A stretch of 64,000 bases of DNA, taken from positions 23,622,001-23,686,000 of the forward strand of contig NC_134469.1 of assembly GCF_964194025.1 (NCBI RefSeq), given 5' to 3'. The notes under the pieces are model-generated. The model saw nothing but the letters and a program-made list of their open reading frames with translations, ran no database searches and was not told where the DNA came from. Numbering within the stretch: position 1 is the first letter of the stretch; every line of letters starts with the position of its first letter. Of this stretch, positions 4,896-64,000 are shown in pieces. Source of the DNA: Convolutriloba macropyga. Taxonomy: Eukaryota. Position numbers and translations under genes: made by a program.

Positions 4896-7390
4896 AACGA
4901 TGCTCGGTAATGTGCGATTGCACATAAGGTTCCGACCCCGCTCAGCCACAAGTTTGGCATAGTTGTCTACCAAATGAGGAGCAGATAGAAAACCCCAAAA
5001 ATTCAAATATTTTTAAAAAAGAAAATTGGTGTATGAACGAAAAGATGCCTCCAAAGCAAATAACTCAGTGGAGTAAAAAATGATGCATTAGATTGATGAG
5101 AAATGCCAATATTAAGAAAGCGAGTCAAGACAAACAGCAAAATCAAACAACAACAAACATTAATTACATCAAAAAAATTATGTCCGTTTTAAAAAACAAA
5201 ACTTAATAACAAAGTCAAAACAGCGTCCGATAAAACTGAACTAAACAAAATAATTTGTAATTCACCAGAAAAGATATGGGACCAGTCCATAATAAGGCTT
5301 GGTAACAATTAGACAATAAAGAACAAACGGTAAATTTAAAAAATTCGCTTATTTTTTTATTAAAACAATTAATTTCGAAGTAATGAAAACCATTGTGAAT
5401 CAACCGAAATATCCCTTAGGTTTAATATTACAGGTGTTTCTAAAGATGGGAATTAAGAACTGTCGGTATTCAATTTTTATGCGGTTACAAAAAGAACAAC
5501 AAATAGACAACAAAAAAATCAGTTAAATTTCGCCAGAAAACGCACTTGAAGCCGTAAAGCCATACTTTGGCCCTCAAAATATGTTCAATTGCACCTTCTT
5601 CGAACACCAATAATGTATTATTTAACCTCATTTATTAAACCAGGTAACAAGTAGACAAATAAAAAAAAGGCAAAATTAAGTAAAACTTTTTTTCGAAAAA
5701 AAATTAATTTCAACGACATGAAAGCCATAAGTTACCCAATGAAATAGTTAAACATAATCGTTTATTCTTCCAAAGGAAGCCCCTGAGTTCTGCAATTACC
5801 CAGAATATATCTTACGTCTACAAGAATAACGTAAAAAATGACAAAAATCAAAAATTAATTTACTTTTTAAAAAAAACCGTGTCGAAGCCAGTAAAGTCAT
5901 AACGAATTCTTTGAACTCAATAGATTTTGTGACAACAATCCCTTTGACACGTTCCCCTGACCACAATATTGCCGTATTAGGCCTGTAAATAACGAGACTA
6001 GGTAACAATCAGACAAAAGGAACATACTAGCGAAGTTAAAACGTGTTGTTTTTATTTTGGAAAACAATTGTTTTCAAAGTCTTGGGAGCCATCAAATGTC
6101 TACAAATATCAGAATATCGGCCAATCTATTCTTCCATGAAAAACCAATAAAATAGGGTCATTGTACAGGAAATTTCTTGCGACTAAAAAGACAAAGTAAA
6201 AACGCCAGTTAAAGACAAAACTAAAAAATTCATTTAAATTCTTCGAGAAAGTATTGTCGAAGCCGTTAAAACGAGAGTCTATATCCTTAAGGATTTTAAT
6301 ATTATTTATTGTGCCCTATTTTGAACGCCAATAATGTGATATATTAACTGTCAATAACAAGATAATGTGACAAAACTAAAAAACGTTAAAAATGGGCAAG
6401 TACCTGAAAATAAAAAAAATGGGAAATCTAGTAGTATCAAAGCCAGAAAACCATAATTTAAGGTGTAAAACCGCAATAAAGATTGAAATTGAATTCATTA
6501 GAAAGAGAAAGCTTTCTTTCATTGCTGACACTAAGCTACAAGTTAACCAAATTAAGAGAAAAATGGAGGCACTAGTGAGCTTTGATTTGAAATGTTCTGT
6601 TATTTAATTAATATATAAAAAAGATCGATTTTTTTAAATAAAAAAGACCGTTTGATTAAATCCGAATTATTTTTATAATTGTAACAGTCCAAGATTGGTC
6701 CAAAACTAGCTCTGCTAATGCTCTTCGTGCATTAAGAACACTTTATTTTTCGAATGCTATAGATATAGATATTTTGTTAGTTAAAAAAACAAAAATAAAT
6801 GCTGTTTTTGATAATCAACGAGTAAAGTACGCAAAAAACGGCAAAGTTTTAATTACAGAGCACTCGCAACGGAAGTTCAAGTATGAATAGCCCCCCCCCC
6901 CCCCTTGAGTCTACAGAGATTGTATCAGTGTAGTTTGGGGGTGTACTTCCGGCAAATTTAATCAAAGTGGACTAAAGAAGCTTATTATGTGCTGTTTTTG
7001 ATGAAAAGTCTGAAATTTGAAATATTTGGCCAGAAATTTTGACAAAAAATAAATAAAAATAGCCGACAATTTTTTTGCTTTAAAAATAAAATCAACAACA
7101 CTTTCCTTAAAAAATTTAACAAATTAGCGAAATTTTAGTCAAAAATTTACGAAAATGTGAATAAAGTCAACGGAATTCACTCTATTTTCTCAAAAGTTTA
7201 AACCTCGATAACTCCCTGTAAAACACGAAAATCAAAAATTCTTTTTAATTCCATATTCTACGCTGGACTGCTTTTTAAATGATACCAGTCTCAACTCTCT
7301 ACAATGAATATATCGATCGGCCAAAATTTTCTGAGCAAAAAATAACTATTTAAGTATATAGTCCCCCCTCAAGAGGGGTCGGAACAAAAA
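4896..7390 (+). mobile_element. Non-coding ~2.5 kb interspersed repeat, Helentron/DINE-like non-autonomous element
   Basis: Colinear diverged copy at ~59893-62500; subterminal inverted repeat GTTCCGACCCC (4929-4939) / GGGGTCGGAAC (7375-7385); 3' hairpin CCCCTCAAGAGGGG followed by an A-run; no ORF. Confidence 0.7.
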
Positions 7391-7863: not shown

Positions 7864-9321
7864 TCACCGTTCTATGAGAAGCCTCGAACGAAATTGACTG
7901 CCTCTGATATCCCATAAAGGGTAAACATCTACTTTCTCTTGCATGCTGAGAATCCACGAGTCTAGGGCACTATCTAATCTTCTGTTGATTAATTCCACAG
8001 TATGAATGCGCAGATATCTGATGGAAGGATGATTATAGAGTTCAACTTGGAAAGGAATGACCAAATCTCTGACTACGTCATCGCCAAATCTCGGTACAAT
8101 ATTAATGCTCAATACCTTTAATTGCAATTGACGCATGCAAAAGCGAATGAACGGTGCAACATAACGATCTAACTCACTTGTCATGAAGGTCGCAGTAAAT
8201 AGCTCAAGGTTCCACTTAAAACTAGATAAATCACTGTCCGATATATCAACACCATCTTCAAAAGCCAGCATGACTCGTACCTTTGCTAATTGTGTGGAAT
8301 TTCTGAAGCAACCTAAAATCGAGTACCTTGTGCACAGAACTTCGCAGCTCGGGGGTAGATCCCCGAAATCATAAGTATTCCAGATTTTGGCTGATTCATT
8401 CTTGGGGAGGAGATGCAGATAGTTCAAATTTGGGAAGCATTGTGAAATAACTTGAGGAAGATTATATACATTTCCCTGCTGGTTGTGAACTATAACAGTT
8501 CGAATAGATGACAACTGACAGCTTGGAGGTAAACTTGTCTGAGGAATGCTTTCTAGTTCCAGCCTTGACAATCGTGTTAAAGGAGACAAATCAGAGAGTG
8601 ATCGAACAAGTTCTGTACCAAAGGTCTTCAAGCTTGGGAATTTGTGATGCAGGGACCGGAAAGGAGCTTCAGTTGAATTTGTGAAGTATGATTTTGAAAA
8701 GCCAGCCTTGACAACATTTTGACAATAGTTTGAAGGAGCAATTTCGTTGAGACATTCAAAAGTTTCCAATTCTTTCATGTCAATGCATATCTCAACATTT
8801 GCCACAAAGCAATTATTATGAATAAGCCTATCAAAAATATGTTGCATTAACATCTCATCTATTGGTCGAAACCCACGAAGAGCAAAGTGTTCTACGCTGT
8901 CTTCACAGAGCCTCGCCAGGGTTTCAAAAAATGGTTCGAACTGTTTGGGCATGCCACGTGGATAAATGTCATCAACGGTGCCCGCAACAACATCCAATTC
9001 TATTTTCAGATAATTGCACTTCCAATTTGTCTCACAAGCAACCGCATTTAAAATGTCAACCGAAATTGGTTCTCTTTCTGTTTCACAATCACTCTGATAA
9101 TATACAGCTTGATAGCGCGGGCTGATATCCAGAAAAACTTCAAGCTTTAAACTAATATGTAAGTTCGACACCTCTTCTCGCAAGGCACGACATGTTGACC
9201 GAACACTAATCAGGTCGCGAAAGCTGTTATTTTCAATAAATCCGAATTTCGTAATAACTAAATACTCAAAAATGCATCGTCTAATTTCGCGAGGCAAAAA
9301 TTCGAACAATGATTTTGTCAT
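7864..9321 (-). CDS. F-box protein (N-terminal F-box, LRR/FBD-like C-terminal region), 485 aa, intronless CDS
   Basis: MTKSLFEFLPREIRRCIFEYL...DLISVRSTCRALREEV is an F-box pattern; repeats FPSLKTF, LSRLELE, FPNLNYLHL are LRR-like; ATG at 9321 follows a T-rich AG acceptor at 9330. Confidence 0.8.
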   Translation of the reverse strand: MTKSLFEFLPREIRRCIFEYLVITKFGFIENNSFRDLISVRSTCRALREEVSNLHISLKLEVFLDISPRYQAVYYQSDCETEREPISVDILNAVACETNWKCNYLKIELDVVAGTVDDIYPRGMPKQFEPFFETLARLCEDSVEHFALRGFRPIDEMLMQHIFDRLIHNNCFVANVEICIDMKELETFECLNEIAPSNYCQNVVKAGFSKSYFTNSTEAPFRSLHHKFPSLKTFGTELVRSLSDLSPLTRLSRLELESIPQTSLPPSCQLSSIRTVIVHNQQGNVYNLPQVISQCFPNLNYLHLLPKNESAKIWNTYDFGDLPPSCEVLCTRYSILGCFRNSTQLAKVRVMLAFEDGVDISDSDLSSFKWNLELFTATFMTSELDRYVAPFIRFCMRQLQLKVLSINIVPRFGDDVVRDLVIPFQVELYNHPSIRYLRIHTVELINRRLDSALDSWILSMQEKVDVYPLWDIRGSQFRSRLLIER

Positions 9322-9944
9322 TACTGATACTAAAAAAAACAACTGTATGAAGTCGTGAGGGGCTATAGGAAACGATCCAACATCTAAACGCCTTGTTAGA
9401 CATCTTAAAAAAAACAAGATAATTATTGTAGAACATCCCAAAACCTACAAATGGAAAAATTGCTCTTGAATGACCGGACCAGCAGGATTAAAATAATTGC
9501 TACAAACTTCATTTGAGTGCAATTAAAAACCACTCTAATGAAACTTTATATGTGACCCTTGCTAGTATCAACTGCCCAAACTAAAGCCCATAAATGAATC
9601 CATCTTATATTAATCTGAGTGAGAGCAATTTGTCATAAAATTTTTAAAAAGATTCAAAAAATGTTGAATGATCGGACAGAAAAAGTTATTAAAAAGATTG
9701 GATTGACAAACTGAACACAATTTTATTGAGATCAACCAGAAACGAGACATCACTTTGAAGCAAATGTAACGGGAAATTGGCTTGAAACGCCCCAGTTGAT
9801 AAAAAGAAAAACTTGCACTGCTTTTGCTTTTCTCCAAACTTTGCTTTAAAACTGTGGCTGAAATTGCATTTGAATCATTTTGCTTCAGGAGCATTAATTT
9901 AAAGAAAAATCACTAAGAGCACGAAAACAGGTAGATATAGTGAA

Positions 9945-10128
9945 TTGTTGTTGTTGTTGTTGTTGGGGATTTACAGTTTTCACTGAGGGGATTTTCGTCC
10001 CAGTCGTCGTCTTAGAAAATTGTCCTATTATTTCTGCAGATCTGACAGTCACAGCATAGATGCCAGCTACAGATGTTATTTTCGTCGAATCGCTCGTTTA
10101 TAAACTTCCACATGAAATTTAAAACTCG
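9945..10128 (-). mobile_element. 5'-truncated copy of the LINE at 1-2057 with a (CAA)7 tail
   Basis: Reverse complement of 1877-2057 with one substitution seen. Confidence 0.95.
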
Positions 10129-11113: not shown

Positions 11114-11531
11114 AATCTGTACATATAAACCTAATTTGAAACCTAACGTGAACGTAAATGTATACTGCTTCATACCAAACTTTGACCTCCAGAAACTGAC
11201 TGGTAATTTATTCATTTCATTAGCAGACGTGGTGCTCATTTTTTCATTCTAATAGCACACAGTGCACTTTGAATTTTCGTCTTTACGATCGGTTGCTTTG
11301 ATTTTGCTCTTTCTGTTTGGCCCAACCCAACCCAACGGAACGCAAGACGACAGATGAGGAGCTAGATGAAGAGTACGCAGTATCACACTTTCTCAGCAAC
11401 AACGATAAGCCGACCTAGTTAATCTCTCAGTCTCTTTCCCAAGAGGCGAGGCTTTAGTTGCGCGCCACCCCCCCCCCCCCTCCCAAAGGCCCCCTGCCAG
11501 AACTGCGCTGCCAATCTACACTACGCGGGAG

Positions 11532-12740
11532 TTGAGGCTTAGTCTACGCGTCTCCAACCTCGACCAAAGTCTAGCAACGAGCCACAACCAAAACCAGAGA
11601 AAACGCAAAGCAACTGATGGACCCCGAACCAGCTCCAAGATTAGAAAGAGGCAACCTGAGCAACATATTAAAGTAGTCTACTTCACATTTGAACATGAAA
11701 CACCGAGCCACAAAGAATTCAACCAGCAGCTGAAGAACTTAACTGGCAACCCGAACTACGGAGAAGTGAGGCGAAGTCAGAACGGAAAAGGCTACTCGAT
11801 GAAACCAAGAACTATCGAGATAGCAAAGATGATTACTGCAAATAAAGTCAAGGAAGCATTCGCAAACTACCAAGTCAAACTAAGCACTGCTGCCTCCAAC
11901 CCGGTGAAACCGAGCTTCGTCATAACAAGTGTAGACCAAGACATCGATCCTGAGGACGTTAAAAGTGAGCTGCAAAGTCAGAACATAGAGGCAACATCAG
12001 TACATAGAATAACAAGTCGTGCAACCAACCAACCTACGAGGCTCATAAGAGTGTTTACAAACACAGAGACAACTGCCAGGAATGCTGTTGACAACGGTGT
12101 CAAAATTTTCAATCAGAGAAAGAGATGTGAACGATCGAGACTAGAGCCCTCGGTAGTACAATGCTTCAAATGCCTCCAATATGACCACAAGGCGAAGGAC
12201 TGCCCGAACAATCTCAAATGTAGACGATGTGGCGGAGAGCATGTTATAAGAGAATGTGATGTTGCTCCAGAAAGTGCCAAATGCTCTAACTTCGGAGAGA
12301 GTCACTCTGCAAATTATCGAGGCTGCTCAAAGTACCAAGAAGCACGAGCTAGCAGCTATGCTGATGCAGTGAAGAGCAAGGTCCACACTAGTCCACAAAG
12401 CTCTCTGAACAAGATTGAAGAAGTCCTCAGCAACATCGACAAGAGGCTCGAGAAAATAGAGAGCAACCTCACTGAAAGGGTCCAAATACTTGAGAACAAA
12501 GTGGCTGAACTAAACAATAAGATCAATCTGGCGGAGCAAAGAGAACAAAACAGCATGACAATTATTGCAGCCATGAAACAATGCTTCTTCGATTCCCCAA
12601 AGCAAAAGATAAACATCCTCCAGGCTCTAAACGTTGTCTCTGGTCATAACTACAGTCAAGTTAAATACGATGCAAAGATTAGAGAATTCAAGCATCAATT
12701 CGCAAGCCAACGAACATCAATTCATCATGGCAAACCTTAA
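11532..12740 (+). CDS. LINE ORF1 nucleic-acid-binding protein (PRE_C2HC-like region, three zinc knuckles, C-terminal coiled coil); true start uncertain
   Basis: QCFKCLQYDHKAKDC, CRRCGGEHVIREC, CSNFGESHSANYRGC (one Cys lost), SYADAVK. Confidence 0.88.
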   Translation: MRLSLRVSNLDQSLATSHNQNQRKRKATDGPRTSSKIRKRQPEQHIKVVYFTFEHETPSHKEFNQQLKNLTGNPNYGEVRRSQNGKGYSMKPRTIEIAKMITANKVKEAFANYQVKLSTAASNPVKPSFVITSVDQDIDPEDVKSELQSQNIEATSVHRITSRATNQPTRLIRVFTNTETTARNAVDNGVKIFNQRKRCERSRLEPSVVQCFKCLQYDHKAKDCPNNLKCRRCGGEHVIRECDVAPESAKCSNFGESHSANYRGCSKYQEARASSYADAVKSKVHTSPQSSLNKIEEVLSNIDKRLEKIESNLTERVQILENKVAELNNKINLAEQREQNSMTIIAAMKQCFFDSPKQKINILQALNVVSGHNYSQVKYDAKIREFKHQFASQRTSIHHGKP

Positions 12741-15379
12741 AGTAGCTCAACTGAACGTCAGAGGCTTGAGACCAAAGCTCAGAGTTATTGAACCAATTTT
12801 ATTAGACAAGGGCATTCATGTAGCCTGTTTTAACGAGACAAAAACGAAGCAGCCTCCTCATCTGCGAAATTTTATCTTAGCTGCAAGCATTAACGACAAT
12901 ATACATGGCTCGGCCATATATATAAGAGAGGGACTAAACTACACACTGCTAGACAACAAATTCGTCAAAAACGTCTCTAAAACCAACGAGAAGCTGCAAA
13001 TAAGACTCAAAGAATCTGATGTTGACATTACTCTGATATACTGTTCACCCGGCAATGAGATTGAAGCAAGTCACTTGGTCAGGCACAATACTAGATGCAT
13101 AGTGGTGGGTGATTAACCCTATGATCAACCCTATGTCCACAAAGAGCGATGCAACAGGTCGAGTCGTTGAGGAACTTCTGGATGAAGAAAACATACTTCT
13201 GAATAACGACCTCAAAACGCATGAGAAGGGATCCGTTTTAGACCTGCACCTGTGCTCTAAGCCTTTGGCAAAACACATTGTGAAGTTCGAAATATTTGAA
13301 GAGACTATGAGCGACCACTATATGACCATCAGCGAATTTAACCTGCGAGCTCCAAAATCTAGATCACTGCGGCCAAATTGGAAATGCTTCAGAGAGAAGG
13401 TGAGTTGCTACAGAAGCCAGTATGCAGATTTGAACAGCAGAGCAGAAAGCATAGCAACCCACATTAAGACGTGTTACGAGAGCAGCCTCAAAGAAGCTAA
13501 ACCAATACAAAACAAAGAAATAGTCGCGCTCACCAGAAAGAAACACCAGCTGCAGAGAAAAGTCAGAAAGCTGAGAAGACTGGGCATGAGAGGTTACTCA
13601 GAGGAGAGATACCACACATCAGAGCTCAATAGAACATCGAGAAAGCTCTCACAATCACTAATACAAGAAAGGCAGAACCAAGAACTGAAGACGGTGGCCA
13701 GCATGAACTCAAATGGGAAGGGCATCGATTTCTGGAAGGCTTACAAGAAACTCACGCAATCTAGTAAGAGCAATGCAAACCAGCTTAAAATTAGCACGCA
13801 GGAGGCAGCAGATAAATTTGCTGAGAAACTGAAACAGAATATCAGAATGCATGAGGCTGTAACTCAGGAAGCTGAAGAGATTGAAGATCTAGTTGAAACA
13901 TGCGTGAACGAGAATGAAATAGCACAGTTTCGCCTGCCCCCTAACCACCGCGAAACTACAGTCGAGGTTGAACAACTGAGAAACATCATCAAAGGGAGGA
14001 AAAACACAGCTCCAGGACCTGACGGAATATCGTATAAAATATTGAAACAGCTACCAGACGCAATAATGAAAGAACTCAGTGACATAATACAAAGCTCTCT
14101 AAAAGATGGAATTGTGCCTGACTGCTGGAAAAGATCCAATGTCTCTATGCTGCCCAAGCCAAATAAAGACCACTCTGATCTCAAGAATTACAGACCTCTC
14201 TCCCTCACAAGTTGCATCGGTAAATTGTGCGAAGTTGTTATCAAGGAGCACTTAAACAAGCACTGTGAAAGTAACGATATCTTCACCAACGCGCAAGGCG
14301 CATACAGAGCAGGTCGCTCAACAACTGACAATTTACTCTGTTTAAGCGAACATATTTTCAATGAAGCCTTCTGGAAGCAGCCAACCGCAGCAGCTTTTCT
14401 CGATGTTCAGCAGGCATTCGATGCGGTGTGGCATAAAGGACTAATCTATAAAATGCAGCTAAACAAAGTGCCAGAGTGGATCATAAAATGGACCGTAAGC
14501 TATCTCAAAGACCGAGAGCTGACTGTAATATACCAACAGGCTGTGGCCAACAGCTTAAAACCAAGAGCAGGAGTACCACAGGGCAGCGTAATCAGCCCTA
14601 CACTGTTCAACATCTATGTCAGCAGTCCAGAAGTCTTGAATGCAAAAGTCTCCCAATATGCAGATGATATTGCAATATACACGAGTGGCAGAAACTGTAG
14701 AGCAGCTACTTTCAAACTACAGAAGGCTCTCAACTCACTGGACATGTGGTGCAACCTTTGGAAAATCAAAATTAATCCCGAGAAAACAAACTTCATGTTA
14801 TTGACCAGAAATAGAGACAAAAGCCACCACCATCTCAAACTGCAAGACGTAATTCTAAATCCATCGAAGTCGTCTACTTTTCTCGGAGTTGAGTTGAACG
14901 ATAATCTAACTTGGGCGGCGCAGATCAGGAAGATTGAAAACAAGATGTTTGGGAGAATAAATGGCCTCATGATGCTGAAAGCGAAAGGTGTCAACTCTAA
15001 GTGCCTCATATTACTATATAGAGCAACGATACGACCAATTATGGAGTATGCTTCGCCGGCATGGGCGAATGCTCCCAAGCACAGCATCATGAGACTTCAA
15101 ATACAACAAAACAAAGCCATAAGAGTAGCATTAGATCTACCCAGATGGACGTCGTCAGAAGAGCTACATAATGCAGCGAACCTTCCCAGAGTGAGCAAAC
15201 TTCTAGCCCAGAGAAATATACAATACCTCAAGAGAGCTTCTAGCAACAACGCAGCAATAAGAGAACTGATCCAAGATCAACTTACTAACACGACCACTGA
15301 ACTCCAATACATTACACCTGTACAGACGATACTGTTTGAAACAGCGAAAAATAGACTCGACAATGTGGGCAGTCCCTAG
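12727..15379 (+). pseudogene. LINE ORF2 (APE endonuclease + RT) with a single frameshift at the GDxN motif (~13113)
   Basis: MANLKVAQLNVRGL, NETK, VGD|N, SDH, APGPDG, YRPLSLTS, FLDVQQAFDAVWH, GVPQGSVISPTLF, QYADD. Confidence 0.92.
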
Positions 15380-16418: not shown

Positions 16419-17320
16419 CAATTAGATATGGGCCCAGTTAATAAAACACCTGATAATCCCCTTCGAAATTGTGAATAATGGCCTAAAAAGGTTAAATGTA
16501 AACCAGGAGCTTATACCAAATAACAAAAATTGTGGATCTTTTCCGTTTGCCCCCAAACCCCTCCGTTTGCCCCCAACCCCCCCCCCCCCCCCAGACGCAC
16601 GTGTCAAACTTTAACATAATGAATTAATGTGTTTAGTCATTCCAATAAAGTTGCAACGCTATCGAAAGCGTCAAAGTTCAAATTTTATACATTCAGTGAT
16701 CAGCTTTCGAAACTTCGCTAGTGTTGTAATATCCGTGCACTGTCTACGGTTACGGTTTGGGTTGGATGTTATTCTTAAGCACTTTAAACCTCGGAGTTAC
16801 TGAGGAAAATTCAGACTTGTTTCAGACTTGAATTTAATAGAGCAGTTGTAAATGTAATCAGTTTAATACAATTAGATATGGGCCCAGTTAATAAAACACC
16901 TGATAATCCCCTTCGAAATTGTGAATAATGGCCTAAAAAGGTTAAATGTAAACCAGGAGCTTATACCAAATAACAAAAATTGTGGATCTTTTCCGTTTGC
17001 CCCCAAACCCCTCCGTTTGCCCCCAACCCCCCCCCCCCCCCCAGACGCACGTGTCAAACTTTAACATAATGAATTAATGTGTTTAGTCATTCCAATAAAG
17101 TTGCAACGCTATCGAAAGCGTCAAAGTTCAAATTTTATACATTCAGTGATCAGCTTTCGAAACTTCGCTAGTGTTGTAATATCCGTGCACTGTCTACGGT
17201 TACGGTTTGGGTTGGATGTTATTCTTAAGCACTTTAAACCTCGGAGTTACTGAGGAAAATTCAGACTTGTTTCAGACTTGAATTTAATAGAGCAGTTGTA
17301 AATGTACAATCAGTTTAATA
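16419..17320. repeat. Tandem duplication of ~450 bp spanning the host/LTR junction
   Basis: 16419-16868 vs 16869-17320 identical apart from a 2-nt indel; CAA microhomology at the junction. Confidence 0.95.
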
Positions 17321-17791
17321 CAAAGTTAGAACTATTGCTTATAAATATTAGAAGTTTTCTGAAGATGAGAAATGTAAAGCAATTAAAGAGAGGCAGCTCG
17401 ATTGTGTAAGGTTTAGTTTTGAATATGTTCTTTGGTTTCAGTTCTATCAATGGTTAATTAATCTTAGGTTATTTTTACCCGTTTTCGTTAATCTCTATGG
17501 GATTTTCTCATAGTTATTTTCTACCGCACTTGTCCCTGTTAGTTAAACTAACAGATAACAGGATTACCTGCTTGTTGAATCCCGTCATGAACAAACATTC
17601 CTTGACGTGTCCCGTCAAGATGAAATTCCATGATGATTCCTATCATTATTTATGATGCTTTCTCTATATTGTTAAAATACGGTTTACTATTAGTAACCAT
17701 CTCTTTTTGTTCTCCTATTTGTTTGTGAAAATTTCGAATTATGCGTTTAATATGTAATTTATGAGCATGTCAAACATTATGGTTCACTATA
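17175..17791 (-). repeat. 3' LTR (~617 bp)
   Basis: 17175-17494 matches 26233-26549; plus-strand TGTAAT start; other end inferred from the adjacent PPT (TATAGT, probably mutated TGTAGT). Confidence 0.82.
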
Positions 17792-17804
17792 CTGCCTCCC
17801 TCTT
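17792..17804 (-). other. Polypurine tract
   Basis: Minus strand AAGAGGGAGGCAG abutting the 3' LTR. Confidence 0.75.
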
Positions 17805-17844
17805 AGAAAATGTGAGTGTTCCTCTCACTCACACAGCAAGAGTT

Positions 17845-18687
17845 TCAAATGTCCATTTTCGAGTTCATATATTCTTGTGCTTTTTCAATCCCGTACTTGT
17901 CAAAAATATTACGGGCCTCCTCGTCTTCCATAATTTTCTTTGCCTGAAGAATGATTTTGAACATGTCCTCACGACCACCCTTGTCCGGATGACAGAGCAT
18001 TGCCAACGTTTTGTAATGTTTCTGGATAGTACTGGTTGTGGCCCCCTGTGGCAGGAATAGAAGTTCATAATAGTTTGGAGGTCGACTGAACGGGCTCTGC
18101 GCGTTGATCGCCTCCAGCCTCCTCTGTATGACCTTCTTTGAGGTCTGCTCTGTATTTACTCTACCCATTAGCTTTCTATTGTCTATCTCGGCATTCTCCA
18201 ACTCCCGAGCTAAGCACTCCCGCTCGTCCACCAGAGCGAAACATTCCCTTGTTTTTGTTTCGGCTACATTTGTAACCTCCTCCAACTCTTTCTTCAATGT
18301 TTCCGACTGCCTCATGCAGGACTCCCGCTGATTCCCAGCGTATTCAATTTGCCGTTTGGTCTCCAGCAATTGATCACCTAATCTTTGACTTTCAACTTTT
18401 AACTGCCGGAGCTGCTCTTCAAGCCGAGCCCCGGCTGTTCCCAGCATTTCGCTGTTGTCAATCTTCTTTTGTTGTTCCTCGATTCTGTGTTGCATCTCAA
18501 TTAACTCCCCAACGCAAATTGCGGCTCTATCCACTATATTGGGATGTTGCAGCTGCGTCAGTGGCACCACGTACCTTTTGTTTGAGGTTACTCCAACAAT
18601 CCGATACACTTGGTGCCTGACTATCGACCTGACCTCGAACAACTCGGGTAGATAGTAGCAATAGTCACCGACCTTTAGTTCTGCCAT
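17845..18687 (-). CDS. Element-encoded J-domain (DnaJ/Hsp40-type) protein: small N-terminal beta domain, coiled coil, C-terminal J-domain; 280 aa, intact
   Basis: NYYELLFLPQGATTSTIQKHYKTLAMLCHPDKGGREDMFKIILQAKKIMEDEEARNIFDKYG covers J-domain helices I-IV with HPD; E/Q/K/R-rich heptads over residues ~60-195. Confidence 0.92.
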   Translation of the reverse strand: MAELKVGDYCYYLPELFEVRSIVRHQVYRIVGVTSNKRYVVPLTQLQHPNIVDRAAICVGELIEMQHRIEEQQKKIDNSEMLGTAGARLEEQLRQLKVESQRLGDQLLETKRQIEYAGNQRESCMRQSETLKKELEEVTNVAETKTRECFALVDERECLARELENAEIDNRKLMGRVNTEQTSKKVIQRRLEAINAQSPFSRPPNYYELLFLPQGATTSTIQKHYKTLAMLCHPDKGGREDMFKIILQAKKIMEDEEARNIFDKYGIEKAQEYMNSKMDI

Positions 18688-18760
18688 TCCTACATATCAT
18701 ACACGTAAATTAGTCTAATGTATCAATCTCAATTTCTGCTATATCTGGTACAGATTTTGC

Positions 18761-20151
18761 CTATTTTGCTTTTATTACTAAGATGTTTGTTTCACCATCA
18801 CACCGTTCAACTGTCCTTTTTCTTGTTAATTTTAGTTCTTTTCTTCGTTGTTTTAGATGATGAAAATAACCTAGTTCCCCCATTGGGTTAATGGGTTGCA
18901 GTGCAATTACAGGATTGGTGCCACTGCGTAGCATATCGATTGAAAGAAACACGCGTACCAAACAAAATATGATTTTAGATCCAATAAAAATAGGATTTTT
19001 ATTGGATCTAAAATATGTTATGTTATCCATGACCCATATGTTATCCATGACTCATTCTGCAATTCAAGAGCGTTCGGGTACATGGGGTTGCAATTAATCA
19101 GTGTGAAATTTCTATAGATTACTCTAGAAATGGGGTCCATGTATCTAATTACTTCTGAGGTATTGTCAGAAAACACCCTAACTGGTACTTCCTCCGTACA
19201 AAACTGATTTTCGACAACATGTACGATTACTTTAGCGCACCTATGGACATAAAGTATTCCTCCCGCTCTTTCTGCGTGTGTACCCAGAGCGTTTTGTTGA
19301 TTTAAAAAAATTAAATGTGAATTTCCGTTAAATGATGTCGTTAGAATCATAGCTCTGTGCAGCTTTTCTATGTGACAATTTAATAACTCTATTTGTTTCA
19401 GGTTTTCAAACATGCCTCGAAAATCCCACACAAAAAGTTGATCGAGTTTTATTTCCCTGAGATCTGTCTCAGATATATGTGTTGTTGAAAAATTTTGTTC
19501 CGTGGCCGTCAACTTTTCCGTTGTGTAAAATAAATTTCTGTGGTTTGTTTCAAAAAGCAGAAAATTGTCTATATATTTTGTCTTGTTTTTCAACTGGACA
19601 ACTAAATTTCATTTTCTGTCTAGTTTGCCCGTCAATCACTTTGTTTCCAGCGCGGACTATTTTTGCTGTTATCGAGTCTGAAAATTTAACGATCGTTAAG
19701 ATGTTTGGACTTCTTTGGGAGCATTGAATTCAAAATCACCAAGACCCGGTAACCGCGCTTTGTGTCCCTGCCATAGATTTTGACAGACTGACTCTTTTAT
19801 TGGGTAAAACGTTGGAATTATTTGTGATTTTTCGCTTAAGTAAGTTGCGTCGTCATACCAACTACTTTTTTTCAGCACAGTTACCGTATATGCAGCCCTG
19901 TACATGCAGTATTTTAGTTTACTCATGCTGCTTTTGGCGTAGATCAGTCCTCCTTTGTTTACCTGCTCCTCATTTATATGTGACGTTTCATAATTTGTCG
20001 GTTCCGTCACTGCAAATTTCTGCGTCTGTAGAATGTTCTCAAAATCATAACCCAAAATCTCCAAGGATCGTGAAAAACCTAATATGCTAACCAACTGAAG
20101 AAGTTTCCAGTTCAGCTGCACGATCCAATGTGGGTTCCACGCCCTCTGCAT
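18761..20151 (-). pseudogene. Env-like glycoprotein related to chuvirus-type class III fusogens; frameshifted and internally deleted
   Basis: Signal peptide then ILGYDF (cf. LIGYDC); AGGILYVHRCAKVIV...CTEEVPV...YMDPISRVI...INCNPMYP...W matches the chuvirus-G C-terminal pattern AGEVVHIxKCxPV...CYxELPV...FLxPxTHIL...CNxxxP; hydrophobic remnant and basic tail in 18761-19048. Confidence 0.8.
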
Positions 20152-20167
20152 TTTGTCGTATCACCTT

Positions 20168-22061
20168 TTAAAAAAATACATCATTATCAAATTTTTCATC
20201 TGCATCGTTATCCTTGAATAAAAAATAGTCTTTCACTTTCCGTGGTCTGGTTATTCCCGACGCAATTCTTGTTTGATATCGTCGTTCGGCGACATTTTGC
20301 GAAGTAGAAGCCATGCTCCTATTTGGAAATTCTTCGCCTTCACTCCTTTCGGATGTTGACACCAGACTATCCCGCTTCTGCTGTGTGGCTACTTTGGGCG
20401 CCAGTATCTTTGTGCTTCTGCTATTATTGTTGGTGTTAGTATTTATTGATTCTCTTGTACTCCCACCCATAGGTGTTTGAAACAATTAGTTTTTGACTGT
20501 CTCATTGTGAGTTTCAGTATTAGGATTAATTTGACTAATATTTCCTTCAGTTTGAACTTCTCTTATTTCTGTGTTCTTCAATTTTGGGGTCAACACTTCA
20601 ATTTCCACAAAACCATTGTCCTCCGTAAGGTCGTTTTGTGTTATTCTCGGTTCAATCTTTCCCTTCTTAGGTTTTTTTATCAGTGTTATTTTTTCTACTG
20701 TTAAAACGTTTGAGTCGATCGTAGTGGACCTTTTGTTGTTTTTTTGTTTTCACATCCTCAATAACAAAGTTCAGATCGTTTATTATTTCACGTATTGCCT
20801 GCGGTCCGCTGTAAAAGGATTTAAGTTTCCTTGTCTGGCCATTTTTTATTGTGGCGTTGAACACCATTACTAAATCACCTACTTCATATTGTGGTCCAAA
20901 TGTGCTACGGTCATAGTAGGTTTTTTGTCTTTCTTGCTCCCCATCCATGCTTTCCCGTACCAGCTCATGGCAGGTTTGTAGTTCGTCTTTCAAGCAACCA
21001 ACGTAGTCACTCAAAGTTGGGTAGATTTTGGTTTGTATTGTTTGATACATGCAATCAATCGGCAGCGCGCACGATCGTCCATAAAGGAGGTAAAAGGGGC
21101 TGTACTTCGTAACAGAGTGAATTGATGATCTGTACGCCATCATTACTAGCGGAAGGTAGTCGCTCCAGGTGTTGTGATGCTCACCCACATATTTTGCAAG
21201 ACTCTCTTCGATTGTGCGATTGGTGCGCTCTATCATTGCGTTTCCTTGAGGGTGATAAGCTGTTGTTGACGTCCTGTTAAATCCCAGCTCTTTACACATG
21301 TTCTTGAAAAGATTCGACATAAAATTACTGCCCTTGTCGCTATGAAGATTTGCCGGACAACCAATCTTTGAAATCCATACGTTTACAAAGGCCTTAGCTT
21401 CCGTTGAAGCTTCTTGGTTGCTCGTGGGAATTGCTTCATACCATTTTGTAAACTGATCTTCAATTAACAGAATAAATTTGTTTCCGCTGGACTCGGGTAA
21501 AGGTCCCATAATGTCTAAGGCAACATGCCAGAACTGATGACTTGGTTTCCACGTTGTCAGGTTGTGTATGTGTTTCCGGTGTGGAGATTTCGTTTGATAG
21601 CATTCTTCGCAAGAACTTACCCCCTCGTGGACATCTTTTTTCATCCCGGGCCAGTAGAATCGTTCTCGAACCCGATCAAATGTCTTGGCCATACCAAAGT
21701 GTCCGCAATGTTCATGAAGGAAAAGTAGAAGTGATCTCTGAATGACTATTTGTGTTAAGTTATTAAATTCGTCAATACGTTTCTGTCTCTTGATTAGATC
21801 ATTTTCAATCCGTAGGTTTCTGAAATCAGTCCAAAGTTTCAACAGTGCCCTAGAGGCTCCTGCCATGCGTTTTCCTTGAGAGCGTTTCCTGTTCTCAATC
21901 CAGTTTCTCAGTATAATGAGGTCGGCTGCATTTTTCTGATGTTCAAATAGTTGTTCAACAGATTTCCCTAGTCCAATGGACCAGATATTTTTTTCTTCCG
22001 TATTTATTTGGTTCACTTGATCGCAGTCTTTGACTTGGTCTTCAGTCTGTGGAACTCTCAA
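20168..22061 (-). pseudogene. Gypsy integrase (HHCC, DDE core, GPY/F) plus frameshifted C-terminal tail
   Basis: HEHCGHFG...CEEC, LDIMGPLP, HSDKGSNF, YHPQGNAMIERTNRT, SPFYLLYGR, FYSGPQ, VHYDRLKRF. Confidence 0.93.
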
Positions 22062-23363
22062 CAGACAATCCGCGTGAGGGACCTTTATCCCGCTTCGTGT
22101 TTGATTTCAAAGTCAAACTGTCCGAGCTTTTCTCTCCATTGGGCCAATAATCCGTCTGGTTCCTTAAAACTATATAACCACGTGAGGGCCCTATGGTCAG
22201 CAACAATTAAAAATTTTTGTCCCTGAAGATAATTTCTGAAGTGGTGAGTAAAATAAACTATTGCAAAAAGTTCTCGTTTTGTCGCAGAATAGTTTCGTTG
22301 ACTTTTGCTGAGCGTTTTGCTTGCGTAAGCAATAACTCTTTCACCCCATTGTTGTATTTGGGAAATAATTGCGGCAATGCCAAACAAAGAGGCGTAGGTG
22401 GTTAACGTATAGGGATCCATTTCATTCGGATAACCCAAAATTGGTGCTTTCTATAAAGCTTGTTTTCGTTGTTCAACTGCTGATTCACATTGCTTGCTCC
22501 AAGTAAAGCGTTCTTTTTTGTTTAATAGCTTATAAAGCGGCTCTGCTATTTTTCCGAAATCTTGTATGAATCTTCTGTAAAAGCCTACTAGTCCTAATAT
22601 AGCTCTCAATTCTTTTATTGTTCGTGGGCTTTTCATTTTACTGACTGTCGCTACTTTCTCCGGATCCACTTCAACGCCTTTATTTGATACAATGTGTCCC
22701 AGGAAATGAATTTTTTCCTAAAAAATAAACCTGCATTTTGAGCCTTTTATTTTCAATGCAGCGTCTTTAAGTCGCCCAAGTACAAGATCTAGGCAGTTGC
22801 GATGCTCCTCAAAGGATCTACCGAAGATGATTATGTCATCCAGGTATACTAAAGCCTTTTCGTAGGAGAGTCCCGACATGATCAATTCCATTAAATTTTG
22901 AAAAATTCCTGGCGCGGACGCCAAACCCATGGGTAGTCTCTTCCATTTGTAGAGTCCCATTGGAGTGTAGAGTTCTGTGACTCTTCATCGAGTGCGCCAT
23001 TTGAAAATATCCCGATGTCAAATCGATATTGAAAAAGTAACAATTTCCGTCTAGAGAGTCAATAACGTCATTTATTCTTGATAGCGGCCAACTGGTTTTC
23101 TCGATTTGTTTATTCAAACCTCTGTAATGTAAAACTGGTCTGTAGCTGCCATCTTTCTTCTTCACCAATATTGATGGTGCTGCCCAATACGAATGGGTTG
23201 GTTCAATTATTTTTGCATCCTTTAGATCTTCGACAATTTTTTTCATTGCTTTTCTTTTATCAAAACTCATACTGCAATAACTTTTTCTGAACGGCTGTGC
23301 ATCTTTGTTGAGTTAAATCTGGTGTTTAATTTTGTCAAAATATCCTAAGTCATTTGAGTTTCG
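22062..23363 (-). pseudogene. Gypsy reverse transcriptase and RNase H, multiply frameshifted
   Basis: SYWAAPSILVKKKDGSYR, IDLTSGYFQ, LPMGLASAP, YLDDIIIF, LGLVGFYRRFI, IAYASKTL, YSATKRELFAI, DHRAL. Confidence 0.93.
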
Positions 23364-24200
23364 TCAGAAGACTTGTTGATGTCTTGAGAACAATTCCTGT
23401 AATTTCTCCTGCTGGTCACTTAGTTTAGAACCTTCCAAGTTTGCGTGTTTTCCCATTTGAAAAGTTTCCAATGTTTTTGACTTATTTTGATTTGTGAAAA
23501 TTCCATTCACAACTAAGTTTTGTTTGTTTTCAAAGTAAGTTCCCACTTTAGTGCTTTTATACACGGTTACTGGTGCGTTCGTTAGATTTAACACTTTTAT
23601 CAAACTCCAACCATCTTCCATTGATATCATACAGGCGGCTAAAAGCAAACCAGTCTTTAATTCAAAATCTTCAATTGCTTCCACTAATTCTTCCACTCCC
23701 GGAATTTCTTCTCCGTTTTCATCAGCTAATCTGATTTTCATTAGACTTTCGTTTTTACTCTGTATATAAGTGTTTTGTCCCGCAATTGCAATAACTTGAA
23801 CACCTTGCGTTTTCTCTTTGGTGAGCGGTATTGAAATTTTAAATTGACTGCTATATAGTTTCGCTTCGTGTAAGTTCAATACACATTTATTGGTTTTCAG
23901 GAAATCAATTCCCAGCAGACATTCTATACCTTCGTCTGTCGTTATCACAAACTTTTGTTCAACCTCCGGTAGTCTTGGTTGCAACCGTACCAAAAGCGTT
24001 ACTCTGCCTATTATTTTGACAGCTGAGTTTTTGGCTGTTAACACTCGTTTTGTGTATGTTTGTACAATTCACGATTTTCCCAGTTTTTTGTATGTGGACC
24101 AGCTCGAAAGCGATATACTACTTCCACTGTCTTTTAACCCAACGCATCTGTTCCCGTGAAGTATGATTTCTGCGTTTAGACAGTTAATTGTGTTTGTCGA
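23364..24200 (-). pseudogene. Gypsy aspartic protease and linker
   Basis: GLKDSGSSISL catalytic motif near 24130; CLLGIDFL. Confidence 0.85.
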
Positions 24201-25193
24201 ACAAACTCTAATGACATTGCAATTCTCGGTGGTTTTCTTTTTAAAAGGGTAGTTTCTTTTCAAGTGTTGGGAACTTCCACATAGGAAACAATTTCGAAAA
24301 TTCCTCGAAAGGTGTCCTTCTTGTCCACAGGTTCTGCACTTGAAACTCTGCCTGTCGTTCCTCCTAGACGGTTCCTCTCTTCCAAAAGATCTGTCTTGGT
24401 GACTAGGCCCTGGCGTTGGAAATCGCCGCCGATCGTTAAACCCACGATCTTGTTGCTGTCCTCTGTCACGTCTTTCGTCACCCCACCGTCCTCGGGAACC
24501 GCTTCGCTCCCTAGATCGATTTCGACGGTTTTCTCGCTGTTTGTTATCTACTGACAATTGGTTCACAAGCTTGGTGACGGCCTCCACTAAATCTTTTGTT
24601 TCATCTCGTCTAATTACCGCAACTTTTGGTGTTCGCTCTTCCTCCTCTATTCTTGTTACAGCTTCCAGATGCAATGCTCTTTCCAAAACTGTTTCAATTT
24701 TCATATCCTTGACGCCGATTTGCTTTCTGAGATCTAACCTCATCTGACTATGGTTGATTCCTTCTAGAAATCATCTCAGAACGAGATGGTCTCTAATCTC
24801 TTGCGACTCCGTTGGGTAAGCTTTCAAAGCCAACTGCTTTAAATCTCCCAGAAAATCTGTCAGTTTTTCTCCTGGTTGCTGTACGCGGCGAGCTAGCCGT
24901 CCCCGGAAAACGACCGGTATTTCGCTGTAGTGTTCTCAAAAAGCTTTAACGCACTCATCATAATTTTCTCGTGTAGCTTGCGGTAGAGTGCGATAGAACT
25001 CTATGGCAGATTTTTGTAGCCTAAGTGCAAAGTAATGCTGCCGTTCATCAACTTTGCGAGCCGGATTTCCTTCAGTTCTTCTCCACTTTTGTAGTTCCGC
25101 TAATAGCTCAAAATTCGTCACGTAACTTTCCAAGTCATTTGAACCGGTAAATGCTTCCGGTAATAGCATTCTAGAGGTTGAGCCCGTTGCCAT
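24201..25193 (-). pseudogene. Gypsy gag (capsid + two degenerate zinc knuckles), disrupted
   Basis: PEAFTGSNDLESYVTNFELLAELQKW; CRTCGQEGHLSRNF and CFLCGSSQHLKRNY. Confidence 0.88.
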
Positions 25194-26219
25194 TTTATTG
25201 TTCCCCTACTTGTATTGTGCCCTTTTAAAACTTTGTTAAGTTGTCGAAATTAATAGTTTCTACAAAATAATTATCAAGTAGATTGTCACTGGAAGGTGTT
25301 TTCTATTTTTATCTATTAATTTCTATAGCACTCTGTTTATTTTAATGTTTAAAATACTTCTGTTTATAAAAATCTAACGCTTATTTCAATACGGAATTTT
25401 TTTTTTTTACTTATTTATTTACTTTTCTTTATTTTTAAGGAAGTTTTAATTTACAGTCTTATAGACGACTGTCCCACCTAATTTCTCTTTTTTTATTTTA
25501 ATATGATTCTGTCCGAACTTCGATTTTCCTTTTTTATTGATGTTTTTAATATATTTTCTTTTCTATTTACGGCAAGGATGATATTAGGTGCTTTAGTTTT
25601 CTTTTACTTATTATGCTTATAGTTACCTGATCAACTTTTTTTCGCTTTATTTTCTCTTTTTTTTAATGGTAGTTTCAGAAAAAGTAAATATATAACTTTC
25701 AGCAACTGTTTCAATTGATTTAACAACGCGACTATCCCGCACTGTTTTTTCCGATGGTTATGCCGCTCGTTTTCTAAAAGTCAATTTAGTAACTAAAGTC
25801 AAAAGAAAAAAATATTTCTTAGACTAATAAGAATTACGCAGTGGCGATCAGTTTCAAATACGAACGACTAAAACAAGATAGAACTCTTTATTTCTACTCA
25901 CTTGGTATGATGCGGTCTTTCCTTACAGGGAAGTTTCCTTGTCCACCATTAAGTAAAAGATAGCACCACGCTAGTAATTTCTCACTTGTTTTCCTGCGAC
26001 TGATGTCCTGTGACTGATGTCCTCCGCTGTGGCTTCTGCAATTGATATCCACAAAAATTGGTGGAAATTGGTGGTAATTGAAGATTTGTTATCATAAATA
26101 TTTGTGTTTGTTTTGAGAATAATTCGATTCTCGGAGTTTTTGGGGTAAAAGTGCTTTTTATTTGCGTCTCCCTACCGACAAATTTGTTAAAGATTTTAAA
26201 TTGTTAACTTTCCTTTAAA

Positions 26220-26231
26220 TCTCTGTCGCCA
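26220..26231 (-). promoter_or_regulatory. Primer-binding site
   Basis: Minus strand TGGCGACAGAGA begins 1 nt after the LTR end (...ATTACA c TGG). Confidence 0.8.
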
Positions 26232-26232
26232 G

Positions 26233-26549
26233 TGTAATATCCGTGCACTGTCTACGGTTACGGTTTGGGTTGGATATTCTTAAGCACTTTAAACCTCGGA
26301 GTTACTGAGGAAAATTCAGACTTGTTTCAGACTTGAATTTAATAGAGCAGTTGTAAATGTACAATCAGTTTAATACAAAGTTAGAACTATTGCTTATAAA
26401 TATTAGAAGTTTTGTGAAGATGAGAAATGTAAAGCAATTAAAGAGAGGCAGCTCGATTGTGTAAGGTTTAGTTTTGAATACGTTCTTTGGTTTCAGTTCT
26501 ATCAATGGTTAATTAATCTTAGGTTATTTTTACCCATTTTCGTTAATCT
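26233..26549 (-). repeat. 5' LTR, truncated on its outer side by a LINE fragment
   Basis: 3 substitutions + one 3-nt indel versus 17175-17494. Confidence 0.92.
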
Positions 26550-27560
26550 GTGCCCCTGAGTCAGTTTGTGCCCCTGAGTCAGTCCAGTTTCAGTTGTCAA
26601 GTTTTTTTCCAATTGTTGCAATTGTCACATCTCCAAATTATACGCCAAGAGCAATTGTTTGTCAGGCGGAATTGAGTTGTGAAAAAAAGTGCCAGTATGA
26701 TTTTGTGGTAGTGTCTTTGTTTAATTTGCCTCCAAATTTTTGAATAATTCTACTTACAACGTTGCACAGTTGTTTCGTTCGGTGGAAGAAGTTTTCGTCG
26801 GATTTGACTAGTCGATTTTTTTCGATTTTCAGTTCACCTCTACAGTGTTGCCTTGTCCTCTCGTCTTCAAGGGTTTTAAAATCTGTCGGAATGTCAAATT
26901 CATTACGTGTAGTAGCTAGGAAGAGAAGAAGATCATGCAGTTCAACGTAGTGACAGATTGGGAGGAGTTTTAGGCTAATGAGACGTTCTTTGTAACTTTG
27001 AAGTGAGTTTCCTAGAATCCATTTAGTAGCCATGATCTGCGCTTTTTCAATTTTGTACATGTTGGTGCGGTTTGGCAACCGTGCTTGTGAGCAGTACGTC
27101 AGGATTGGAACAACATGACCAGCAAAGCAGTTCATTTTGGTTGACGTTGAGTTGATTGCCGAAATATTTCGTTTTATTTGGAAAAAAGCACTGGTCACTT
27201 TTTTTCACTCTGTGGTCGCAGTTGCCTTGCCATGAGAGATTTGATGTAATTATTAATCCAAGGTCTGTTTGGGATTCAGTTGGTTTCACTTCCTGGCCAC
27301 ACATAGTTGTCGTGAGATTACCTCTAACAATTAACAACTTGCATTTGTTCACATTTAACTCCATTCCATTCTCTCGGCACCAGTCTCCAATATTTTTTGC
27401 ACTTCTGTCCATTTTTGCTTGATCATGAACAATGAACTTATAGTCGTCTGCAAATCCAAAGCCTTCAATATCGGGGTTTGCGTCTGGCAAGTCATTTATA
27501 AAAATTAAGAACAGCAGTGGTCCAAGTATGGAACCTTGTGGGACTCCACTTGTTACGTTC
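26550..27560 (-). mobile_element. 5'-truncated CR1/L2-group LINE (RT C-terminal half + 3' UTR)
   Basis: VTSGVPQGSILGPLLFLIFINDLP, FADD, DLGL, terminal WRIIWRCDNC; duplicated GTGCCCCTGAGTCAGT at its 3' end. Confidence 0.9.
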
Positions 27561-28249
27561 TCCAAACTAGTATAATGGCACCTGCTCTGTAATTGGGGTT
27601 GCTTAGCGTACTGGGAGGGGGGACAAACGGAAAACATCCAAAAATGATTTGGCTAACATAAAACAACAGGCAACTAATGTAAGACTGATTTCTCTCGAAT
27701 GAAGGCAGGCTTGATTCCATAGTAGACTGCTTCAATCAGGGAGTAATTAACAGGATTAACGGGTAATAGGTTCACTAAGGGTCTCCAAATGAATTTATTA
27801 AGGATTATATAGGCCACTAAAAAGATTAAGAGTGAAAAATAAAACCGTGGCAGTTTAATTTGATTTCAGTAGTGAACCGCTAGAACTGCATTCATTAGAA
27901 TTGGATTCATTACAATTGGTATCCGGGTTTTTTAGGTAACAAAGCGTGTCGTCTCACAAAGTAAACACCGATTCAAGTGGTGTCTAAAGCAGAACAGAGC
28001 CCTGCATCAGGAGGCGTCACAAGAATTTCACATTGGAAGTTGTATGGAAGCGCTCAGACGACCTAACACGGCTATTGAACAGAGGTAGAGGTAAACGGAA
28101 AGTAGGTAAGAAACAGCGAAAACCCAGACAGAAGCGTCAAGCTAAGGAAGCCGACAGGTTACTCACGGACGGTGTTGTCCGCAGTACTGGTGGAATTTCT
28201 GCGCGAGATTTAGATGTCAGCTCCAATTATGCCAGTCATTTGGATCAGA

Positions 28250-62500: not shown

Positions 62501-64000
62501 TGAACAAAAAAAAACATAGCAGGACAAGTCCTGACGCACAATTCAAAGAATTTTTATTGAGTAAACAGAAAAACTAGACCTATATTGGACTATGAGTGAA
62601 TTCAGAAAAGCATTTAAAAAAAATCAGAACAAAAAAATAAGAAATAAACAGAAAATCAATGTCAAAATGCCGCATGTGAACAAAAAAACCACTAGCGAGA
62701 AATGACAATTTAATTCAAACAAAAAACTAGGCCTAGAATGAGCTTTGAATGGATTGGGAAAACTATTTAGAAAAAATTCCAATCCAAAAAATCGAAAAAA
62801 AAACAGTAAAAATGAGAGTGAAATAACTGCAGGTGAAAAAAAAACCACTACCGAGAAACCGAAGTTTTGTTCAAACACCGTTTTCTCACTCTACTTTAAA
62901 ATTAGAGCGAAAAAAATTCACGCCGCAAAACCACTCGCTTTTCGCTCCATTTCCTGTTTTGGCGTGACCAAAATCACTACTCCAATTTGACTTCAAAAAT
63001 CACGAAAATATGTGAACAGATCTTAAAAAAAAACATAGCCGGAAGAATTCCGGAAACGACTCGAAGTGAAAATCCATTTAAACGCCATCCAACTACTCAT
63101 CAAACAAAACGTGCCCTCACTAATTTATAATCATCTTGAAACAAAGTCATGAAACAAAAAAGTAAAAACACTAAAATCAAATCTGTTAAAATTTGATAAA
63201 AAAAAATCTGATCAAATTTTGTTATAAATTGAGATCCCGAAAAAAACTATCGCTGCCAAAATAACTTCATCAAACGAACTAGTACTTAGAAAAACCACTT
63301 ATGTGAATTTTCAAAAAAAACTTGAGGCTAAATTATGAAAAAAAGCTCAAAAACAACTTTCACTTAAAAACTGGAAAAAGTTACTATTTTTTAAGATTTC
63401 AAAAAACATATAAATCCAAAGAAAAATTCCCTTCAGCCAATAGGGTATCCAGATGCTCACAAAAACAATAGGCAATTCATAGAAGGCAAAGAAATTTTGG
63501 CTAAAAACAGAAAAAAACGAAAAACTGCAAAAAAATTAAGAAAAATAGTTCCAATTTTTGCAATTTTTTTGTCATATTTCTCAATTAAAAAATGATTCTT
63601 ACGCACAAAACTGTAACCAATTGTTATCATAATATTGCTCAAGTAGGAAGTGTTTTTTCAATACCCATTTGAGCCAGTAAAACAAAATAATCGTCAAAAA
63701 AACGCAAAAAGTAGCCCGAAAATCAGCAAAATACATTGAAAACCACCGAATTATCGTAAAATTCATATGGATTTCCAGAAACCGTCAAACCACTACCAAA
63801 ACCAGCGTAAAATTGAAACAAAATCATAACCAAACCTCTTAACGAAAACAAATGATAAAAAACTGCTTCAAAATGCCGCACGTGAACAAAAAAATTTCGC
63901 TCGCTTAGAGAAAATTTTTTCACACATCAATTTCTCGCTCTCTCAAAAACAGCGGTATGAACAAAAACCACTCTTTTCGCTCCGCTCTTCTTTTTTGCTG

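Follow-up and report, generated by a model that had tools for sequence, protein, structure and literature searches.

The window, i.e. the whole stretch of 64,000 nucleotides from Convolutriloba macropyga that was analysed here, carries a decayed copy of a Ty3/Gypsy LTR element on its minus strand (17175-26549). The parts of the element follow each other in the order 5' LTR remnant, TGGCG as the start of a putative primer-binding site, leader, gag with a CCHC motif, PR, RT, RH, IN and a tail of low complexity, then env, the fourth ORF, the polypurine tract and the 3' LTR (Table 1). Stops and frame changes interrupt this copy's gag, pol and env, and the fourth ORF is open. The latter, situated between env and the polypurine tract, was missed by the original prediction, which had been made from the letters of the window. 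For comparison, 19 sister copies were taken from the best matches in the 1.18-Gb eukaryotic assembly that was searched, chosen by their best 3' matches; they are 93-95% identical to the window copy.

Table 1. Coordinates of the element features in the window (strand of the window) and of related tandem arrays
Feature	Position	Strand	Basis or remark
3' LTR, ~617 nt	17175..17791	-	5' LTRs of sister copies align over 17791/17793-17175; ATTACA end, then unrelated flank
Polypurine tract	17792..17804	-	purine run abutting the 3' LTR; role presumed from position
Fourth ORF (open frame of 280 aa): beta domain of three strands, then a long coiled coil and the J-domain	17845..18687	-	Pfam and AlphaFold model
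J-domain with HPD and short HPD-K-GG loop	17899..18075	-	PF00226, E 4.4e-14, 52.8 bits (cut-off 27.8), profile 1-63 of 63
Putative branch point (CTAAT) and splice acceptor AG	18690..18713	-	just 5' of the fourth ORF
env, broken, gB / Monjiviricetes G (class III) type	18710..20151	-	PF24664; gaps and frame changes against sister copies
gag-pol, broken, gag(CCHC)-PR-RT-RH-IN-tail, Ty3/Gypsy type	20168..25193	-	Pfam on window fragments and sister frame
Putative splice donor GTGAGT, 5' leader	25896..25901	-	motif also in the family-B leader examined
Putative primer-binding site start, TGGCG	26227..26231	-	abuts the 5' LTR
5' LTR remnant, outer half lost	26233..26549	-	98.1% to the 3' LTR over 320 nt
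Tandem arrays of env 3' end and fourth ORF	L146:7929-10000; L147:1-6540 (G000:C10); L049:3870-9028

The element and its Gypsy backbone

The assignment to a Gypsy and not a Pao backbone, as made in the original prediction, agrees with the Pfam content, the RT fold match and the RT trees. The gag-pol of one sister copy forms a frame of 1686 codons with the Gypsy set of Pfam families; the Pao families PF05380 (RNase H region) and DUF1759/DUF5641 are absent from the sister gag-pol of this family, and a Pao element of this genome does have them. In a fold search, the closest solved structure to the sister RT was the Ty3 RT (E 2.5e-42). Furthermore, the RT trees group the RT of the family with other Gypsy RTs, apart from the Pao RTs; one row labelled L232_Pao falls among the Gypsy RTs and probably represents a Gypsy fragment of that locus, not its Pao frame. 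The domain order PR-RT-RH-IN is common to Ty3/Gypsy and BEL/Pao elements. Here it is found together with an RT of the Ty3/Gypsy group, and the gag-pol region is enclosed by LTRs, a putative primer-binding site and a polypurine tract, as is characteristic of Ty3/Gypsy elements. The env profile matched in none of 7 Pao loci searched in the same genome, out of at least 150 Pao matches.

The two LTR segments (17175-17494 and 26233-26549) are 98.1% alike in a heavily broken copy that differs from its sisters by 5-7%. An attempt at LTR dating was therefore given up, since such a figure cannot date the decay. The likeness of the LTRs in this broken copy suggests that a defective copy was mobilised in trans or that gene conversion took place.

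Several other repeats are found in the window. At 16419-17168, an exact tandem duplication with a period of 450 nt includes the 3' LTR end and flank, and represents either a recent duplication or an assembly artefact. Beyond the 5' LTR remnant, remains of a LINE RT were detected (RVT_1 at 27047-27652, Pfam). A nearly whole LINE lies on the plus strand at 11409-15379, with a zinc-knuckle region in ORF1 and an endonuclease-RT ORF2 split by a frame change near 13110. An ORF of 526 codons without Pfam match (7864-9444) lies between 181-nt inverted repeats (1877-2057 and 9948-10128), and this region is possibly a DNA transposon. At 39217-39468 and 41348-41609, short subterminal repeats form inverted arrays that are spaced by about 2 kb and resemble the ends of non-autonomous DNA transposons. 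Finally, a repeat of ~2.5 kb occurs twice, at 4902-7346 and, 55 kb away, at 59901-62515, in copies that have diverged (73-88%).

The env gene, its fold and its origin

The env gene begins with an ATG at 20151, 16 nt past the stop of the pol tail (20170-20168), and the motifs GYDF, AGGILYVHRC, CTEEVPV, YMDPISRV and CNPMYP were all found in the window, in line with the original prediction. The proposed exchange of Cys in the first of these motifs, GYD(C>F), also proved to be a property of the lineage: all 5 env rows of the lineage have Phe or Ile at this position, and the YDC Cys is kept in all other gB-type rows compared. The gene had been taken as a single ORF, 18761..20151. Compared to the sister copies, it shows instead two gaps of ~320 nt, frame changes and in-frame stops, and its end at 18761 is a premature stop, with the homologous frame stopping at 18710. 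Hence, of the 686 residues of the sister frame, residues ~1-148, 254-481 and 594-686 are retained. The signal peptide, which had been claimed as well, is plausible, but no N-terminal window of 19 residues exceeds a hydropathy of 1.5 in the family of the window element (family A); the env N-terminus of a second family (family B, see below) has a clear hydrophobic stretch with up to 2.07 in a 19-residue window. Among the 19 sister copies, the env frame is open in 2 and the fourth ORF in 13, from which nothing is drawn, because the fourth ORF is shorter and the sisters were sampled by their best 3' matches.

The Env protein of a sister copy contains one membrane segment (587-605 of 686), which forms a clear C-terminal anchor, and six N-glycosylation sequons. 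PF24664 (Monjiviricetes_fusion) matches the window segment 19018-19608 with an E-value of 2.8e-11 and 42.6 bits (cut-off 27), and it matches sister frames as well. Moreover, the ectodomain of a natural sister copy was modelled as a monomer from an alignment of 37 rows (mean pLDDT 64.7, pTM 0.39). When this model was compared to the PDB, herpesvirus gB made up all 40 rows listed (best E 3.3e-12), and in the BFVD the G proteins of negative-strand RNA viruses ranked first (best E 1.9e-23) with gB lower down; these fold matches combine strong E-values with low TM-scores (0.2-0.5). The env profile gave no match among PDB sequences, i.e. gB was reached by the fold search alone. The leading BFVD matches are glycoproteins of xinmovirus, thrips negative-strand, chu-like, qin-related and other viruses at 12-15% identity. 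Because they spread over several virus families, no family is singled out as donor. The original term "chuvirus-like class III fusogen" is consequently well chosen regarding class III and too narrow regarding the chuviruses. By profile and predicted fold, the env of the window is a class III fusogen of the gB / Monjiviricetes G type. Baculovirus F did not occur among the Pfam or fold matches listed for the sister Env and the furin motif R-x-R/K-R is missing from it, which distinguishes this env family from the baculovirus-F-type env of errantiviruses. The outcome that would have spoken against the original prediction, a lack of class III matches or a baculovirus F match in their place, thus did not occur among the matches listed.

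Such env genes in Gypsy elements have already been published, hence this combination is not new. Chary and Hayashi (eLife 2026; PMC13524379) reported that 114 gypsy elements carry homologues of the Chuviridae-like glycoprotein of BEL/Pao elements, found the gB-type env to be roughly as common as the F-type across animals and argued for an ancient acquisition. Their HSV/gB-type "errantiviruses" share with the window element the gag-pol-env order within LTRs, a Gypsy pol, the multicopy state and a gB-like class III env without furin site. In their elements the cysteine bridges in domains I-II differ by lineage, and the env lineage of the window has a reduced cysteine set: it lacks 5 to 6 of the 14 cysteines conserved in the other 32 gB-type env rows, including the YDC Cys. 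The Anakin elements (Dezordi et al. 2020) carry a Chuviridae-like glycoprotein of the same broad family (PF24664) at the env position, but in a BEL/Pao instead of a Gypsy backbone.

In the env tree, which was built without viral rows and has to be read with caution where long branches meet, families A and B together with the outside protein P0118 form a long branch of their own. The same genome contains a second, distant Gypsy clade with a more canonical gB-type env. That the Gypsy lineage of the window acquired a chuvirus glycoprotein separately and on its own, as originally suggested, would be consistent with the isolated env branch, with its identity of only ~16% to the other gB-type clade of this genome and with the different RT branch of that clade. 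The premise of this suggestion was also valid in 2023, when PMC10084718, in its available text, saw no clear Gypsy capture of such a glycoprotein in arthropods. Nevertheless, we consider a separate capture unlikely, because no donor family stands out among several at 12-15% identity, and such env genes occur across animal phyla and are interpreted as ancient (PMC13524379).

A fourth gene with a J-domain

The protein encoded by the fourth ORF was modelled by AlphaFold with a mean pLDDT of 72.8 and a pTM of 0.31, showing strands at 17-42, helices at 51-197 and the C-terminal J-domain. Its best fold matches in the PDB are J-domains, all of them weaker than E 0.001. Since its J-domain is complete and has the HPD between helices II and III, the protein fits into class C of the J-domain proteins, and all of 10 diverse rows compared have kept the HPD unchanged. 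According to hydropathy, the protein has no hydrophobic, signal or membrane segment. A possible origin of the beta domain from a duplicated C-terminal SH3 domain of the integrase was not supported: the profile comparison gave a probability of 0.76%, 6 of 100 column shuffles equalled the score and 2 of 32 other pol windows scored higher, with only 3 integrase rows in the profile.

The fourth ORF may be expressed from a spliced RNA. An AG stands at the acceptor place in all 29 family-A contexts listed, mostly after a CTAAT-like motif, a count that was made without a chance model, and acceptor-like stretches also precede the fourth ORF in families B and C. In most family-B copies the fourth ORF does not begin with an in-frame ATG, which favours splicing; in this family the ORF would rely on the putative splice or on a later start. 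No joints of the leader to env or to the fourth ORF were found among those listed, which come from contigs of unrecorded type from four runs of one study and give no evidence either way.

The fourth ORF is not restricted to the window family. It has at least 138 matches in the genome (all 138 scored, from 1,783 candidates), and a genome-wide search with the J-domain revealed the second multicopy family B. Among 20 loci around J-domain matches, 18 had the family-B version, 15 of these 18 with env directly upstream and usually a Gypsy pol before it. The identity between families A and B amounts to ~80% for RT, 63% for IN, 31% for env and 30% for the fourth ORF, and their synonymous sites are nearly saturated. 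In a third and older family C (78 matches at E 1e-30), the order env-then-J was found in 4 of 12 loci, in agreement with Pfam. Hence, the fourth ORF stands behind env in three divergent families of the same genome. It was found in 0 of 14 loci of other gB-env Gypsy lineages of this genome, and is therefore not needed for a gB-type env.

Some copies form tandem arrays in which the env 3' end and the fourth ORF recur together as a unit of ~1.8-2.3 kb; these arrays count at least five (family A) and three (family B) units (Table 1). Other gB-env Gypsy families also carry an ORF behind env (~284 or 611 codons) without Pfam match (L021:7654-8508, L027:1842-2696, L023:7517-9352). The 284-aa ORF, which belongs to a family with an env of 898 codons, was compared to the fourth ORF and is unrelated (probability 0.5%). 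The same 898-codon env family shows a weak match to the Macro domain (PF01661) in pol before RT, with E 2e-4 to 1e-3 and 19-21.8 bits, just below the cut-off of 22 (L238:4298-8980, L239:1551-7268, L240:1680-7364).

Relatives of the fourth-ORF protein were searched in public collections. A word-index search returned close copies only (117 proteins, best-segment identity at least 55%). Among the best 150 matches of a profile search against 1.84 billion representatives, P0176, P0180, P0183, P0193 and P0210, from contigs of 1-10 kb in ENA and Logan, consist of the same three parts at 27-35% identity. P0193 and P0176 have no close match in the element's own genome (best identities ~50% or less) and thus come from other organisms. 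In a J-domain tree of 56 rows, families A, B and C and eight database proteins (seven picked as relatives, plus P0300) form one clade of 11 rows with a support of 98/91 and none of the 16 host rows; this tree rests on 78 columns with bootstrap values that had not settled, the host row L069 was mis-cut at the wrong HPD, and P0294 was left out. Scans of viral contigs gave at most matches at the J-domain level, with RT, IN or env in 0 of 66 loci, and metagenome scans (80 loci) gave such matches or nothing. Phage genomes had no match to the fourth ORF and the ESM Atlas no usable one.

To analyse selection, two-allele sites were counted against one natural copy in 20 copies of family A and 19 of family B. 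Variants were divided into singletons, which mostly represent decay after insertion, and variants present in at least 3 copies, which mostly stem from replicating lineages. Across all the whole genes and regions analysed, the singleton pN/pS was 0.74-0.95. The shared variants are, in these counts, not independent of the relatedness of the copies; their ratio was 0.02 in RT-RH, 0.08 in IN, 0.18 (A) and 0.22 (B) in env (p 4e-5 and 0.006) and 0.16 (A) and 0.15 (B) in the fourth ORF. The underlying counts for the latter were N9/S15 among shared versus N137/S45 among singleton variants in family A (Fisher p 0.00045), and N4/S7 versus N132/S37 in family B (Fisher p 0.005). The pol tail, included as negative control, gave no constraint signal (shared-variant pN/pS 1.07). 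The J-domain alone followed the same trend without reaching significance (p 0.067 and 0.064). As the ratio is lower for shared than for singleton variants, env and the fourth ORF were constrained during copying of the elements; judged from these variant counts, both genes were under purifying selection while the families replicated. For env, this signal fits with its past use.

Possible functions of the J-domain protein

The env is a member of a published class, and within this class a layout of four genes that includes a constrained J-domain gene is new. We regard the window element as the decayed copy of a four-gene Ty3/Gypsy element in which gag-pol and a gB-type class III env are joined by an accessory gene for a J-domain co-chaperone acting on the element's own particle, a reading to which we assign a probability of about 0.6. 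The genomic RNA would be translated into Gag-Pol, and the GTGAGT donor in the leader (window position 25901) would be joined by splicing to the AG acceptors that precede env and the fourth ORF. Env would serve as a single-pass membrane fusogen in the spread from cell to cell. The fourth protein, probably soluble, would grip a client via its beta domain, and its J-domain would bring host cytosolic Hsp70 to this client. Which client is bound can only be guessed by analogy. We rank the Gag/Pol particle of the element first, with Hsp70 acting in assembly, RT activation or uncoating, as it may do for the hepadnavirus RT; Hsc70/Hsp40 activation of this RT is named in reference titles of a review (PMC7356129). 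A host defence or cell-cycle target, by analogy with the SV40 T antigen, ranks second. The wider picture, in which an infectious Gypsy lineage in several host species resembles complex retroviruses and uses a J-domain co-chaperone made from a spliced RNA to steer Hsp70 either into the assembly of particles or towards a defence complex of the host, is a tentative one, and we see its chances as slightly below even.

The second-ranked client leads to a different function, namely that the fourth protein manipulates the host and uses Hsp70 to dismantle or degrade a defence or cell-cycle complex, e.g. the RNA-silencing machinery, as T antigen does with Rb. The short HPDKGG loop is also present in T antigens, but it is common in ordinary, viral or bacterial J-proteins as well. 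According to the available text of the review cited above (PMC7356129), the SV40 T antigen bears a J-domain that acts through Hsp70, thus polyomaviruses provide a precedent for a virus-encoded J-domain engaging host Hsp70. This likeness is a functional analogy only: T antigen belongs to a DNA virus, where the J-domain forms the N-terminal part of a protein that is a helicase or binds a phosphatase, whereas the J-domain of the fourth ORF is C-terminal and follows a beta domain and a coiled coil. A host-facing protein is also expected to diverge quickly, and between the families the fourth ORF is indeed far less conserved than pol (30% versus 63-80%). However, env diverges equally fast and no target motif was identified in the fourth protein, hence host manipulation appears rather unlikely.

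A service to Env from the cytosolic side, in trafficking, budding or the handling of its tail of ~80 residues, is very unlikely in our opinion. The position of the fourth ORF directly behind env in all three families and the unusual env lineage with its few cysteines would be consistent with such a partnership, but the position may merely reflect where extra genes fit, and the fourth protein cannot fold the luminal ectodomain of Env because it has no signal or membrane segment. That the fourth ORF is a neutral passenger, i.e. part of a DnaJ gene that was captured from a host, is hardly tenable. LTR elements do acquire host sequence (PMC5408684, available text). Nevertheless, the open frame and the HPD were kept across families with nearly saturated synonymous sites, no sampled host J-protein nests with the fourth-ORF clade, and the purifying selection on shared variants largely refutes this reading. 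Action on the particle of the element remains the reading that we prefer.

Extra genes 3' of pol are known from the LTR retrotransposons of bdelloid rotifers, where they are family-specific and likely have a helper role (PMC5408684). These ORFs encode exonuclease, esterase or env-like proteins, and the words DnaJ and chaperone occur 0 times in the available text of that paper. DnaJ is not mentioned in the available text of PMC12440569 either, and in that of PMC9004415 it appears as a host gene name only. No J-domain gene of an LTR element was found in the literature covered, in which the matches included J-proteins of hosts and of DNA viruses; Repbase, Dfam, GyDB, subscription journals and figures lay outside this scope and may note one. 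Our results suggest that accessory genes behind env escape surveys that rely on gag, pol and env; other gB-env families of this genome have unannotated ORFs at this place, too. If the proposed function is true, the product of the fourth gene would be the first retroelement-encoded Hsp70 co-chaperone in the literature covered here. It would show that a Gypsy element can have its own handle on the host chaperones, a strategy known from DNA viruses, and the client of its product would mark a step in retroelement replication that needs Hsp70.
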